Assembly (NCBI GenBank): GCA_963828125.1
Contig: CAWHDP010000002.1
Coordinates: forward strand, 288,001-352,000
DNA length: 64,000 bases
From: an uncultured Chlamydiae bacterium
GTDB taxonomy: Bacteria; Chlamydiota; Chlamydiia; Chlamydiales; SM23-39
Direction: 5' to 3'
The translations under genes were made by a program, and so were the position numbers. This document shows, piece by piece, positions 27,807-34,361 of the stretch (positions are counted from its first letter, which is position 1; every line of letters starts with the position of its first letter). The notes below the pieces were generated by a model that was not told the DNA's origin, did no database searches, and worked only from the letters and a program-made list of their open reading frames with translations.

Positions 27807-28235
27807 ATGCAATGTTATCGCATCCCTCGCCCCCGGATTGTCTATGAAGTGCTGAATACTGAAGTGATCATTATCGATTTTAATACAGGAAATTACTATG
27901 CGCTGGTTCACGTTGCTAAACAGATTTGGCAGATGATTGAACAGTCGTTTTTCTTCGATCAAATTGTGAGGCTTTTAGCCGATCACTTCCATCTCGAGCT
28001 GGATAAAGTGCGGCTCGACGTCGCCCCCTTTATCGAAGAGCTGCTCAAAGAGGGGTTGATTGAAGTATCCGAGTCTGAGAACTCTTGCGGCTCTGCGGAT
28101 TCGATCTTTGCCGCCGCCGTCGGCTGGGAATACGATGTGCCGAAGCTCCAAACATATACAGACGTACAAAACCTGCTCCTTCTCGATCCGATCCATGAAG
28201 TGACAGAGGGCGGCTGGCCGGAGAAGCTGGACTAA
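27807..28235 (+). CDS. PqqD-family / RiPP recognition element (RRE) protein with a C-terminal YxxPxL...LLLLDPIHEV..GWP tail
   Basis: EVIIIDFNTGNYYAL..VAKQIWQMI...IVRLLADHF...VRLDVAPFIEELLKEGLIE matches the PqqD pattern; an extra ~55-aa tail follows. Confidence 0.85.
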   Translation: MQCYRIPRPRIVYEVLNTEVIIIDFNTGNYYALVHVAKQIWQMIEQSFFFDQIVRLLADHFHLELDKVRLDVAPFIEELLKEGLIEVSESENSCGSADSIFAAAVGWEYDVPKLQTYTDVQNLLLLDPIHEVTEGGWPEKLD

Positions 28236-28242
28236 AAACGGT

Positions 28243-29268
28243 ATGTCCGAAGCCCTTCAATTTTTTGATTCGGCCCGTCGGAATTTTTCCGGCGCCGCTG
28301 CCGCTGCCGGGATCACTTGCCGCTTTTACCGGCTTGCAGAGTTGACCGTCTGTTTAAAGTTTGCAGGGGACGCGCTTGTCGATACTCTGACAGCTGCCTT
28401 GAGCCATTTGGAGACGCCCCCTTCAACTCCGCCCGATCTGACGATCTGTATTTGGGATAGCGCTTCTACTCATACAGAGCCGCTCTTATTTCCTTGGACA
28501 AGTTATGCATATGGACTCCGCGGCGAGGTGGATAAATATAATGATATCCGCATCTACACAGTTGTCGATATCCACACGAAAGCATTGAATCTTTTTGATC
28601 GGGCCCGGAATTTGGCCTTTTTTTGGATCAAAGACGGGGGGGAACTCCCTTGGTGGATCGGAGGATCGCCCTTCCAACTCCTGTTACACTGGCGGCTCAG
28701 ACTGCGGGGGTGTCAATTAACGCACGCCGCTGCGGTCGGTTTTCCTGAGGGAGGGGTTCTCCTGGCCGGCAAAAGCGGCGCTGGCAAGTCGACGACGACC
28801 CTCTCCTGCATGAAGGCGGGGATGCAGTATGTGAGCGAAGATTATTGTTGTCTCACCGATCTTCCCGACATCAGAGCCTATAGCGTTTACAATTCGGCGA
28901 AGGTGAGCGAAAAGACGCTCCGTTGGTTTCCGGACCTTTCCCAATATGTCGAAAATCGGAATCGGGCGAGCGGGGACAAGGCATTCTTGTTCCATCACAA
29001 ATTTCAACCGGAAAAGATTTTGTCCAACTGTCCCTTGAAGGCGGTGATCGCCTTAAAAGTCGAAGAGGGGGGAGAGAGCTGGCTCGAGCCGGTCGATCCA
29101 CAAATCGGCGTGAGCGCCCTTGCCGTGAGTACCCTTTGGCAATTGACCCATACTGGATTTGTCGCATTCAACCATTTAAAAAGGATTGGGGAGACTCTGC
29201 CTTGCTATCTGCTCCATTTAGGGAGCGATTTGACCCAGGCGCCGCGGATGATTGAGGAATTGCTATGA
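28243..29268 (+). CDS. HPr-kinase-like P-loop kinase (lasso-peptide-kinase-like)
   Basis: THAAAV...GGVLLAGKSGAGKSTT...G.QYVSEDY. Confidence 0.8.
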   Translation: MSEALQFFDSARRNFSGAAAAAGITCRFYRLAELTVCLKFAGDALVDTLTAALSHLETPPSTPPDLTICIWDSASTHTEPLLFPWTSYAYGLRGEVDKYNDIRIYTVVDIHTKALNLFDRARNLAFFWIKDGGELPWWIGGSPFQLLLHWRLRLRGCQLTHAAAVGFPEGGVLLAGKSGAGKSTTTLSCMKAGMQYVSEDYCCLTDLPDIRAYSVYNSAKVSEKTLRWFPDLSQYVENRNRASGDKAFLFHHKFQPEKILSNCPLKAVIALKVEEGGESWLEPVDPQIGVSALAVSTLWQLTHTGFVAFNHLKRIGETLPCYLLHLGSDLTQAPRMIEELL

Positions 29269-31466: not shown

Positions 31467-32554
31467 CGGATTTTGGCCGCGGCTAGGAGGAACCGAGACG
31501 CAAGGGATCCAATTTGTCGAAGGGATGCACAGGAGGGGTCATGAAGTGTATCGTACTTGCACAAAAAGACCATCCGAGCTGGAAAGAGGAGGATGAGTAT
31601 CGAGGCATTCCGATTCAAAGATTCAACTTCAATGCGATCCTTGAGACCCGCGACGTCAAGAAGATCGGTCCGATTAAAGAATACCTCGATTGGGCAGCCA
31701 ACGTATTTCAACCGGACATTGTCTATTTGAACACCCTTTTTTGGGGGAGCGCCTTTGTCTTCCTCCTCTTTCGGAGACTCTTTCAGATCCCCGTCATCCT
31801 CACCATCCATGCCCCTTATTTTGAGGAGGGGATTCCCCCTCTCATGGAACAAATTTGCCGTGAGGCCGATTGGATCTGTTGCGGTTCGAAATGGGGATCC
31901 TCTGTAATGGAGAAGCGGCTCCCATCGATGCGCGAGCGGTTCAAGACGATTTACTATGGGATCTCATGGCCCAAAGAGGAGCCAGCCCCGCCCCCTTTTT
32001 CACCCCCAACCCTTTTACTTTTAGGGCGGCTTTCCGTCGAAAAAGGGTTTGACGTCGCGATTGAGGCTTTTTCCCTGCTGAAAAAAAGCGGTTCTCCAGC
32101 CCTGCTTCTAATCGTCGGCGACGGACCTTACCGCCCCGCTTTGGAAACCCTAGTCGCTGAACTCAATCTCACCCCATTTGTCCGATTTGCCGGAGCCGTT
32201 CTCAATGCCGACATCCCCTTGTTTCTCAATCGGGCGAGCTTTGTTGTCATCCCCTCCCACTTTGAGGCGTTTGGACTTGTTGCCGTCGAATCGATGCAGA
32301 TGGGACGAGCGGTGATTGCCTCGAACGTCGGAGGACTACCCGAAATTGTCTCCGATCCGGAAAGAGGGGTTCTTGTCCCCCCTCGGAACCCTGTAGCTCT
32401 ATACAGAGCCATGGCCTCCTTTCTCGATCAGCCGCAAGAGATCGTCAATAGGGGCGTGCGCGCCCGGGAATGGATCAGGGAGAGATTTACTCTGACAGAG
32501 AATCTCGATCAATACGAGGCGCTCTTCGAGGAGGCTATTTTATGCAGCCGCTAG
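31444..32554 (+). pseudogene. GT4 glycosyltransferase with a single-base insertion at about 31543-31546
   Basis: ATG 31444 gives MKMLFWADGFWPRLGGTET...GH, which stops at 31596; the remainder (CIVLAQKDHP...EAFGLVAVESM) is in the +1 frame. Confidence 0.8.
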
Positions 32555-33228
32555 TCAGCGCGATCATAGCCGTATACAACGGGGAGAAATATCTCAGAGA
32601 GGCGATCGAGAGTCTTTTAGCGCAAACCTATGCCCCAATAGAGATCATTGTGATTGATGATGGCTCGGAAGACGCCACTCAGCGCATTGTCCAAGAATAT
32701 GGTTCAGATTTGTGCTCCTTCTACCAGTCGAACCGAGGCCAGAGCGCCGCGCAAAACAGCGCTCTTTTACGGGCCTCTGGTTCCTATATTGCTTTTTTGG
32801 ACGCAGACGATCTTTACATGGCAGAAAAAACAGCCCTCCAAGTAGAATTGTTGGAAACAAGATCTGATCTCGATATGGTGTTTGGGCATGTCGAAGTTTT
32901 TTGCAGTCCCGATCTTTCGGAGACGATGCGTAGGAAGTTCATCTGTCCCACTGAGGCATTTCCAGGATATCTGGCCATTGCCGGCCTATTTAGAAAACGG
33001 TGTTTTGAACAGGCTGGCCTGTTTAATGAAGCCGTCCAGATCGGTCCTTTCATTGACTGGTACATGCGCGCTGTGGAGAGCGGACTGAAAGCTGAGCTGA
33101 GTGCCGATCGGGTCGCCAAGCGGAGAATTCATGGCGGCAACATGAGCCTTCAGACCCAAGGCGCCCATCAGCAATACATCCAAGTTCTCAAAGCCGCCAT
33201 GCAACGAAGGAGACAAATCGAAGTATGA
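32542..33228 (+). CDS. GT2 (GT-A) glycosyltransferase
   Basis: VSAIIAVYNGEKYL, IDDGSED, FLDADD; GGAGG SD before ATG 32542. Confidence 0.92.
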   Translation: MQPLVSAIIAVYNGEKYLREAIESLLAQTYAPIEIIVIDDGSEDATQRIVQEYGSDLCSFYQSNRGQSAAQNSALLRASGSYIAFLDADDLYMAEKTALQVELLETRSDLDMVFGHVEVFCSPDLSETMRRKFICPTEAFPGYLAIAGLFRKRCFEQAGLFNEAVQIGPFIDWYMRAVESGLKAELSADRVAKRRIHGGNMSLQTQGAHQQYIQVLKAAMQRRRQIEV

Positions 33229-34361
33229 GCCGTCCTGTAGATTCAGGCAATGGGTGGCCGACAGCAGAGCAAACGCTTCTACTGAAGGCATGTCTCGATT
33301 CAGGCGCCGCCGCAAAAGCTGCGTTGCATCTTTGGAAAGAGAAGATCGATTTTGACAAAATGGAACCCGCCTCCTACAAACTCCTGCCGCTCCTTTGCCG
33401 CAATATAAAGCTTGCAGACGACCCGATTTTCGAAAAATGCAAAGGGATTTACCGGAGGACATGGGTGGAAAATCAGCTCCTTTGGAAACATATCCTCTCC
33501 ACCCTCATCCAACTTCGCAATGCAGGGATTAGTCAAATCGTCCTTCTAAAAGGGATGGCGATGATTCTCCGTTACTATCGCGATTTTGGCGCCCGGGTCA
33601 TCGGCGACGTCGATATCTTAATCCCGAGAGGAGAGGCCCCGCTCGCAGGCCGTGTATTACAAAGAGCCGGATGGCGACAAGCCGTTTCCCGGTTTGAACT
33701 GGACAATGAAGAGCACACCAACCGGTGGCACGCCCTCAATTTTCTCCATCCAGCCGGATTGCGCATCGACCTCCACTGGTCGCTCATCCAGGAAAATTCC
33801 CGCCTTCTCGATGAAGCGGTGTTAAAACATGCGGAGCCTCTTGCCATAAAGGGCGTCTCCCTTTACATCCCCAGTCCCACCGAGCTACTCCTTCAAACCG
33901 CTGTCCACGGCGTGAAATACAGTCCTGTTCCGCTGATCCGCTGGATCGCCGATGCAACGACCCTTTTAAGACAAGCCGAGAAGGGGATCGACTGGGATAG
34001 GCTCATCGAGCTTGCCAAACTGGCTCACGTCTGCACCCCCCTCTATTTTGCCCTCCAGTACCTCAACGACCATTTTGAGGCCCCCATCCCAAAAAAAACA
34101 CTCCAAAAATTGAAGCACCACCCCTCCCACCGGCTCGAAAAACTCGAGTACCGCTTCCACGCCCTCGGATACACCGATCGGGCCGCCTGGTACCGATATT
34201 GCCTCACCCGCGGCCTTTTGACTCGGAGCAGTCAGATCTTTCACATCCACAAATACTTGCAGTTCACAGCTAGGTTAAAATCCCCTTGGCAAATCCCGTT
34301 CTTTGCCCTTTATTGGATTCTTAAACGGATATACAGATTACTAAAAAGAATCAAATTGTAA
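33225..34361 (+). CDS. Nucleotidyltransferase (NTP_transf_5-like)
   Basis: VLLKGMA...YY...R..GDVDILI...IDLHW...LIRWIAD...IDWD. Confidence 0.85.
   Translation: MSRPVDSGNGWPTAEQTLLLKACLDSGAAAKAALHLWKEKIDFDKMEPASYKLLPLLCRNIKLADDPIFEKCKGIYRRTWVENQLLWKHILSTLIQLRNAGISQIVLLKGMAMILRYYRDFGARVIGDVDILIPRGEAPLAGRVLQRAGWRQAVSRFELDNEEHTNRWHALNFLHPAGLRIDLHWSLIQENSRLLDEAVLKHAEPLAIKGVSLYIPSPTELLLQTAVHGVKYSPVPLIRWIADATTLLRQAEKGIDWDRLIELAKLAHVCTPLYFALQYLNDHFEAPIPKKTLQKLKHHPSHRLEKLEYRFHALGYTDRAAWYRYCLTRGLLTRSSQIFHIHKYLQFTARLKSPWQIPFFALYWILKRIYRLLKRIKL

Follow-up and report, generated by a model that had tools for sequence, protein, structure and literature searches.

In a 64,000-nucleotide stretch of genomic DNA from an uncultured Chlamydiae bacterium (contig CAWHDP010000002.1 of assembly GCA_963828125.1, positions 288,001 to 352,000; hereinafter the window), we analyzed a seven-gene operon (27807–34361) coding for a RiPP (peptide that is ribosomally synthesized and then post-translationally modified) recognition element (RRE), an HprK-like kinase, three family 4 glycosyltransferases (GT4), a family 2 glycosyltransferase (GT2), and an NTP_transf_5 nucleotidyltransferase (hereinafter the transferase). 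The RRE protein is 142 aa long rather than ~90 because behind a variable linker it bears a conserved C-terminal tail of 34 residues, in which a lasso-type leader motif (Y109-x-x-P-x-L) leads into an invariant core (consensus [FY]xxPxLxx[YF]xD-x-Q-x-LLLLDPIH(E/D)V-x3-GWP). We propose that this protein is a fused precursor or carrier that would be phosphorylated on its tail and then glycosylated, a proposition that we regard as evenly poised. An earlier note, made from the window's sequence alone, had overlooked this tail; the precursor only seems to be missing, as a candidate precursor is fused to the RRE itself.

The 80 loci compared in this work were fetched with the pattern [LM]L[LM][LI]DPIH[ED], and we therefore took the conservation figures from profile-retrieved proteins. 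Among these, P112 is kept in 99% and D119 in 98% of 185 sequences, while no substitution is seen at D127, P128, H130, G136, W137, or P138 in any of 131 aligned rows; the aromatic, proline, and aliphatic positions of the leader motif lie exactly 18, 15, and 13 places before the invariant aspartate in 253 of 256 sequences. The modeled RRE domain matches the lasso-type protein TbiB1 (5v1v; Z 13.1, root-mean-square deviation [rmsd] 2.5, 88 residues aligned). Direct-coupling analysis of 257 sequences ranked D71–Y109 and E82–T116 first and second of all pairs, with L63–Y109, N29–Q121, T27–Q121, and V34–Q115 in the top twelve. Since these top covarying pairs join the tail to the RRE, our prediction, very likely a correct one, is that the leader segment occupies the groove of its own RRE; two copies with swapped domains would produce an identical signal. 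The D71–Y109 covariation mirrors the bond between RRE D70 and the leader tyrosine (LppA Y-16) in the LppB–LppA crystal structure (PMC13381572). In the model of the lone RRE, residues 114–117 form a strand within a stretch of predicted local distance difference test (pLDDT) 87–89, and pLDDT falls below 50 at residues 127–133. In proteins with multiple RREs most units retain the leader-like strand, and 16 of 18 such proteins keep exactly one DPIH/DPVH core, the other two having a DPPLP variant. From these patterns the leader part looks structural and the core functional. A DPP[LM]P form of the tail without His or GWP was also seen in proteins P0084 and P0116 and at locus L133 (8509–8949); a metagenome scan with P0084 returned three short loci, all with canonical tails. 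A divergent sub-family (loci L127–L129 and L115) has lost YxxP, keeps DPIH(E/D)…GW, and adjoins divergent kinases. A weak search with a 42-residue tail query, requiring three shared words, recovered no candidate stand-alone tail peptide among proteins of 23–74 aa.

The kinase scores under the Pfam and NCBIfam cut-offs. It shares with HprK the P-loop and a His…Asp-Asp core, its profile recovering the HprK structures 1jb1 and 1ko7 (E about 3e-6 to 9e-6), but the match covers only ~55 residues. H161, K182, and D200 are present in 57 of 57 family members; at position 199, 49 members have Asp and 8, the window kinase (Glu199) among them, have Glu; His-Lys-Asp-Asp is the catalytic motif described for lasso-peptide kinases (PMC9266682). 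When the kinase was co-folded with ATP, Mg, and the RRE, the complex scored 0.66, while the highest-scoring of three controls had 0.00. Of 157 solved complexes 116 attain the mark used for such scores, as do 2 of 215 mismatched pairs; these counts are roughly applicable here, where our own alignments were used and ATP and Mg included. The runs share at least 54% of contacts, with a partner pLDDT of at least 74. In this model the β-sheet face of the RRE is predicted to bind the C-terminal helices of the kinase: the interface joins the outer sheet (residues 9–34, 115, and 117) to kinase residues 285–313, 92, and 177–178, the final two of these belonging to the P-loop. By sequence we found no close solved kinase of this kind, and the PDB holds partner-bound RREs, so that some memory effect is possible in the model. 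Residues 118–142 were not confidently placed; hence, the complex model is silent on where the invariant core binds.

The spacing within the tail provides a cue as to what the core may do. D127 and P128 lie 18 and 19 places after Y109; the phosphoacceptor Ser3 lies 18 places after the leader tyrosine in LppA (PMC13381572) and 19 in BsfA (PMC10368454). Asp127 is thus in the register of the LppA phospho-Ser3, coinciding with the serine of the precursor motif YxxPxVLxHQxIxFETxxS of the linear polyphosphorylated peptides (LPP; PMC13381572), while the position equivalent to the lasso Thr(-2) is Leu124. Because D127-P128 falls at the phosphoacceptor spacing of both systems, we propose that the protein is RRE and precursor in one chain, which would bind to the kinase and present its tail to it. 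Phosphorylation of the tail by the kinase would be followed by addition of a first sugar to the tail phosphate by the PsmN-like transferase, and this sugar would be lengthened to a short glycan by the GT2 and GT4 enzymes. The candidate acceptors are Asp127 and His130, either of which would be new chemistry for this enzyme family. We infer both the phospho-glycosylation and its order (kinase, then transferase, then glycosyltransferases) by analogy: in pseudomycoidin, PsmK phosphorylates a serine and PsmN is needed for the one to two hexoses on that phosphate (PMC6993621), and in the Bsf system the RRE BsfB1 enhances the kinase BsfK (PMC10368454).

The transferase has the motifs KG, D128-x-D130, and D182, which are kept in at least 90% of 39 rows, and is modeled (pLDDT 93.7) with a polymerase-β-like fold. 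Its profile matched no solved structure by sequence; a fold search placed MenT1 nearest (Z 15.5, rmsd 2.9, 180 residues aligned), with ANT(2'') at Z 11.8, and a match to FKRP (Z 7.1) was too low to be used. With PsmN, which needs its Asp pair (PMC6993621), it shares PF14907 and the metal-binding DxD, a likeness at the level of the family.

The tailed RRE defines a widespread cassette. We retrieved 693 family representatives (50% identity clusters) at E≤1e-30 and an estimated ~750 stored GTDB stretches (extrapolated from 52 of 64 parts), with carriers in Chloroflexi, Acidobacteria, cyanobacteria, Nitrospirae, Proteobacteria, Bacteroidota, and others; a search of the viral collection gave no relative. 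The closest relatives of the window RRE are 54–62% identical to it, four of six being from Chlamydiae, Parachlamydiales, or Chlamydiota. Locus counts refer to the best 80 of the ~750 stretches. The kinase, counted with a profile trimmed of fused GT2 domains, occurs at 70 of the 80 (directly downstream of the RRE in 54 of these 70), the cassette GT2 at 71, the transferase at 50, an ABC exporter at 27, and a GT4 at 20; B2 lies at two loci and an asparagine-synthetase-like gene at none, the query having detected cyclase-like genes beside B2 in control stretches. These counts bear out two points on which the earlier note's interpretation depends, that the RRE travels with the kinase and the transferase in other genomes and that the gene set is conserved without lasso B2/C, and call for one revision, GT2 rather than GT4 being the constant glycosyltransferase. 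The note's chlamydial placement of the genome fits the closest RRE relatives; the cassette itself is not specific to chlamydiae, being spread over many phyla and found in no more than 15 of the 300 genomes searched in its phylum. Within the cassette family the window operon is an ordinary, exporter-less member. Eight of the ten kinase-less loci are shorter than 8.5 kb, and four of five such genomes searched whole have a kinase elsewhere.

Genome-wide tallies, which we do not treat as a test since kin are not independent, tie the tail to the kinase. Among the 300 genomes of the same phylum, the RRE occurs in 15, the kinase in 11, and the transferase in 13, and all 11 kinase genomes also have a full-tailed RRE and the transferase. 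Four genomes have the RRE only: in one it is a tail-less RRE in a lasso-like cluster, and in the other three, all of one genus, the tail ends after LLLLDP, so that the leader part is kept and IHEV-GWP is lost in genomes devoid of kinase and transferase. These orphan RREs are at loci L108, L110, and L111 (genomes G172, G251, and G073), two of them near a BPL_N-like gene. In a second phylum (that of genome G042; 251 genomes) the RRE was found in 14 genomes, each with a kinase, three of these kinases being divergent and adjoining the RRE; conversely, all 11 genomes with a kinase at E≤1e-30 have the RRE. Fusions join the same partners: five proteins combine three RRE units with the kinase, the core standing mid-chain, kinase-GT2 fusions occur at six of the 80 loci, and a GT2-transferase fusion at one. 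Longer RRE fusions to GT87-, GT4-, and GT2-like domains (P0210, P0212, and P0213) are single sequences, possibly gene-calling artefacts, and were not used. Tail-less RREs were seen in lasso-like clusters (L113 in G338; L019, 5159–8192; L065, 2–704); for two of these RREs a cassette with the tail lies no more than 10 kb away, which echoes the co-location of LPP and lasso clusters. Glycan genes predominate among the neighbors of the cassette (genes for epimerases, sulfo- and methyltransferases, GT25, GT61, PMT_2-type transferases, and ABC-2 and ABC exporters), and these, with the patchy spread, suggest that the product is a variable surface or secreted decoration. Cultured carriers include Crinalium epipsammum PCC 9333 (plasmid NC_019735.1) and Oscillatoria sp. 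PCC 10802.

The genome of the window (2.37 Mb, 95.4% complete) codes for two PqqD domains and one NTP_transf_5 domain. The second RRE (C2:1182216–1182614) has the same tail and is 26% identical to that of the operon; together with a GT4 it lies directly upstream, on the same strand, of a ShlB/FhaC-type transporter gene and an open reading frame (ORF) of 9,966 codons. This ORF (C2:1149433–1180991, minus strand; 27% Ser+Thr), which stands behind the transporter gene, is a candidate giant two-partner-secretion protein. The region C2:1181137–1188156 is a partial second cassette, with the RRE and GT4 on the minus strand and no kinase or transferase; on the far side of a replicative helicase-like gene are three cassette-type GT2 genes, an oxidoreductase gene, and an FdtA-like gene. 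Other genomes have complete copies of a second chlamydial sub-type, which this region resembles. The genome has a further HprK-like gene, separate from the cassette, at C2:730587–731576, and the best genome matches to the cassette exporter have 27–31% identity for most queries.

Several observations weigh against the proposal that the RRE protein is a phosphorylated and glycosylated precursor or carrier. Characterized kinases of this kind act on serine, LppK refusing Thr and Tyr (PMC13381572), and between D119 and P138 Ser is absent from 139 of 189 tails and both Ser and Thr from 68; the tail would thus be a substrate only with new chemistry. Known RiPPs have variable cores, which the invariant one of this tail does not resemble; it would fit a docking motif equally well, and the 1:1 fusion of core and kinase in the five proteins makes a consumed substrate unlikely. 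Deletion of lppN is reported to cause no change in the LPP system (PMC13381572), and in the cassette the transferase was not found at 30 of the 80 loci, about ten of which are full-length. In the motif His-Lys-Asp-Asp, the window kinase shows Glu in place of the first Asp. The genome of locus L077 has the RRE and no kinase match, and the second RRE of the present genome has no kinase within about 8 kb despite its full tail. At the cyanobacterial locus L133, a GT4-rich operon in a genome that also holds a canonical copy, a DPPMP tail without His or GWP stands beside a motif-intact kinase, a transferase, and glycosyltransferases. Finally, the three orphan genomes, being of one genus, amount to one event. 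A more specific version of the proposal, which we consider unlikely, makes the tail a reusable protein glycan carrier, the peptide counterpart of undecaprenyl phosphate, that would be phosphorylated at Asp127 or His130 instead of a Ser, loaded by the transferase with a sugar on this labile phosphate, extended by GT2/GT4 and tailoring enzymes, and recycled after the chain is passed on; such a carrier would account for the Ser-less invariant core, the missing protease, the kinase fusion, and the changing set of glycosyltransferases.

Alternatively, the tailed RRE may be a permanent subunit, whose leader part would do no more than complete the fold and whose DPIH…GWP core would dock or activate the kinase, GT2, and transferase; the acceptor would then be a serine, phosphorylated and afterwards glycosylated, of a different protein, such as a secreted one rich in Ser/Thr. 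We take this possibility seriously while leaning against it. An invariant core without Ser, its mid-chain position in the RRE-kinase fusions, and its single occurrence per multi-RRE protein would suit such a subunit, as would the position of the second RRE and GT4 before the transporter and the giant Ser/Thr-rich ORF; however, the latter setting recurs at 0 of the 80 loci and in 0 of 19 further stretches, no other acceptor is recurrent among 185 scanned neighboring proteins, and the core lies in the phosphoacceptor register of two characterized systems. It is distinctly improbable, in our view, that the enzymes act on sugars or lipids, with kinase and nucleotidyltransferase activating or phosphorylating a sugar for the glycosyltransferases of a surface glycan (lipopolysaccharide, capsule, or extracellular polysaccharide) and the tailed RRE as a regulatory subunit. 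This might be indicated by the glycan neighborhoods, by a spread as patchy (15 of 300 genomes in one phylum, 14 of 251 in the other) as is usual for variable loci of surface glycans, and by the fosfazinomycin kinases, which activate a small molecule for a nucleotidyltransferase (PMC13622209). The kinase, however, carries the motif His-Lys-Asp-Asp known from peptide kinases, PF14907 places the transferase outside the NDP-sugar (nucleoside diphosphate sugar) pyrophosphorylases, and LPP and paeninodin clusters too lie in capsule loci, yet are peptide-directed (PMC13381572).

We give very little credence to a separate short precursor that was missed and that would displace the tail as an auto-inhibitory mimic. 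The 22-aa fosfazinomycin precursor was long overlooked (PMC13622209), and a 39-codon ORF with WxxPxI (27672–27791) lies just upstream of the RRE; we rejected this ORF as a precursor, it being built from dispersed genome repeats and having no counterpart upstream of 15 related RREs. Short ORFs with [YFW]xxPx[LIV] are in no excess (128 in the 80 loci against 138–160 in shuffles), short leader ORFs within 500 nt upstream of the RRE occur at 9 of 75 loci against 2–15 in 20 shuffles, and a genome scan with the lasso-precursor pattern gave one match, at the end of a 217-aa ORF. Hardly credible at all is a remnant or satellite of a lasso cluster with B2, C, and precursor elsewhere or lost. PF13471 has a match somewhere in 19 of 50 carrier genomes, and B2 lies within 10 kb at two of the 80 loci, but both of these have their own tail-less RRE beside B2, the other 31 carrier genomes have no PF13471 match, and the cassette is conserved over many phyla with its motifs intact. 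In the present genome neither PF13471 nor a local B2 profile gave any match; PF00733 gave two, both with the Met-Cys-Gly start of a glutamine-dependent AsnB; the first lies within a polysaccharide locus, and the second adjoins a lysyl-tRNA-synthetase-like gene (neighbors named from their own sequence). No lasso B2/C elsewhere in the genome, which the earlier note had named as a way to undo its interpretation, thus explains the operon genes. Nor did we find a SipW-type peptidase, TIGR02228 having 0 matches genome-wide and the Pfam-scanned 185 neighboring proteins (of 1108 ORFs) including none of SipW-like type.

The features of the operon are collected in the following table. All seven genes were confirmed on the plus strand, with overlaps or gaps of at most 7 nt, the GT2 start being corrected from 32470. 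In line with the earlier note, a Pfam scan found no cyclase, B2 peptidase, or exporter within the operon. No PqqA/B/C/E was found among the operon or flanking genes, the remaining genome not having been searched for PQQ (pyrroloquinoline quinone) genes. Predicted promoters (6 against 5.4 in shuffles) and terminators (9 against 9.8) show no excess.

Features of the chlamydial cassette operon (window positions)
Feature	Position	Strand	Details
RRE gene	27807–28235	+	142 aa; PF05402 (PqqD) E 1.6e-12
RRE domain (PqqD/lasso B1-like), residues 1–90	27807–28076	+	PF05402; fold match TbiB1
Predicted fused leader-like segment, Y109–L126, [FY]xxPxLxx[YF]xD	28131–28184	+	conservation, covariation, strand 114–117
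Invariant core D127-P-I-H-E-V-x-E-x-G-W-P138; candidate acceptor/carrier arm	28185–28220	+	invariance
HprK-like P-loop kinase	28243–29268	+	341 aa; PF07475 (Hpr_kinase_C) E 9.4e-5, below cut-off
GT4-1	29265–30366	+	PF13439 and PF00534 on two pieces; ExFx4E motif
GT4-2	30363–31466	+	367 aa; PF00534 E 1.7e-39; 49–55% identity to both paralogues
GT4-3	31444–32554	+	PF00534 E 2.3e-36
Short GT2, cassette-specific subfamily	32542–33228	+	228 aa; PF00535 E 3.6e-30; DADD motif
NTP_transf_5 (PsmN/LppN-type family) nucleotidyltransferase-fold protein	33225–34361	+	378 aa; PF14907 E 1.5e-33

Two of the three GT4 genes are broken in the assembled sequence. GT4-1 is split into two ORFs (229 aa and 130 aa) by an extra base at 29904, and GT4-3 has a frame change near 31544. 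We compared the window with short-read contigs from four public runs, of which X1 may be the source of the window DNA; X2 comes from a different sample within that study, and X3 from a different study. Base 29904 is missing from the contigs of X1 and X2, the sole two of the four runs covering the site (both of study P1), and base 31544 from those of X1, X2, and X3 (three of four runs, two studies); no further difference was listed between the window and these contigs. In related chlamydial loci the GT4 genes are full-length and their order is identical. As the extra bases are absent from the short-read contigs, both are assembly errors, and GT4-1 and GT4-3 are intact in the organism. The contigs thereby rule out a programmed frameshift or phase variation, though they drop rare variants, and minor alleles are possible.

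Upstream of the operon (22513–27675) is a gene for a 1,720-aa protein with a PEP-synthase/PPDK (phosphoenolpyruvate synthase/pyruvate phosphate dikinase) ATP-binding domain (PF01326) and C-terminal helical repeats (weak PF01602). On the minus strand, 5.6 kb upstream of the cassette (20374–22178), are genes for a GT61 and an RXYLT1-C/GT47-like glycosyltransferase; RXYLT1-C-like genes also occur near or inside the cassette at loci L005 and L008. The GT61, RXYLT1-like, and PMT-like neighbors call to mind, by analogy only, the animal phospho-ribitol glycan pathway. Downstream, two Pfam-less ORFs (34459–34893 and 37120–38154) flank dnaG on either side and have a common 316-nt segment with 91% identity; the first 180 nt of the upstream region are present twice more on contig C1. 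The intergenic region before the RRE gene (27662–27791) contains three short repeats that are dispersed over the genome: a 14-mer present in 78 copies against 0.76 expected and nine close inverted pairs, a 13-mer with 22 copies against 2.8 expected, and a 19-mer with 14 copies, often flanking ~1.9-kb elements like insertion sequence ends. These are REP-like (repetitive extragenic palindromic) elements in a chlamydia-like genome.

RiPP logic usually separates the recognition protein from the substrate; here the two would be in one gene, across many phyla. If the tail is the acceptor, it would offer a one-protein soluble substrate for probing the function of PF14907 (PsmN/LppN/BsfN), and it may reveal an HprK-like enzyme that phosphorylates Asp or His, or a glycan carrier made of protein.

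The literature searched, with subscription journals and supplements outside its scope, yielded no description of a tail-bearing RRE cassette, and the string DPIH is absent from the main text of PMC13381572. The nearest relative is the LPP system (lppA-K-B-S-D-N; Popov et al., 2026, PMC13381572), which qualifies the earlier note's view of an uncharacterized pathway: a cyclase-less family with RRE, kinase, and NTP (nucleoside triphosphate) transferase is already known, but LPP differs in its separate precursor and peptidase. Both have a discrete-type RRE that binds a YxxP leader (predicted in the case of the cassette), an HprK-like kinase, and an NTP transferase, and both lack a cyclase, lie in glycan loci, often have an MsbA-like exporter (absent from the present operon), and have an acceptor, in the cassette a candidate one, 18 places from the leader tyrosine. 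In LPP, however, the separate precursor has a variable C-terminus and an acceptor Ser, a SipW-like peptidase (LppS) is present, and the distribution is mostly in Bacillota, whereas the cassette has leader and core in the RRE chain itself, an invariant core without Ser, no accompanying peptidase, a constant GT2 of its own type, and carriers in many phyla. In the fosfazinomycin system (FzmZ/F/K/T/U; preprint PMC13622209), an RRE likewise stands beside a nucleotidyltransferase, and kinases and nucleotidyltransferase load a small molecule onto a YxxP scaffold; as described, it differs in its separate 22-aa scaffold, asparagine-synthetase-like enzyme, phosphonate cargo, and lack of glycosyltransferases. 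With the phospho-glycosylated lasso peptides (pseudomycoidin PsmK/PsmN, PMC6993621; paeninodin PadeK; Bsf BsfK/BsfB1/BsfN, PMC10368454) the cassette shares the B1-like RRE fold, the His-Lys-Asp/Glu-Asp signature of the kinase, and the DxD of the transferase, RRE-assisted phosphorylation being a feature of Bsf (PMC10368454); unlike them, it has no macrolactam synthetase, B2, free precursor, or Gly/Ser-start core with a ring Asp/Glu, and includes GT2 and GT4 genes. Lacking a cyclase, B2, a SipW-like peptidase, a separate precursor, and an acceptor Ser, the cassette fits neither the LPP nor the phospho-lasso class, yet it would work like the tailoring arm of both.

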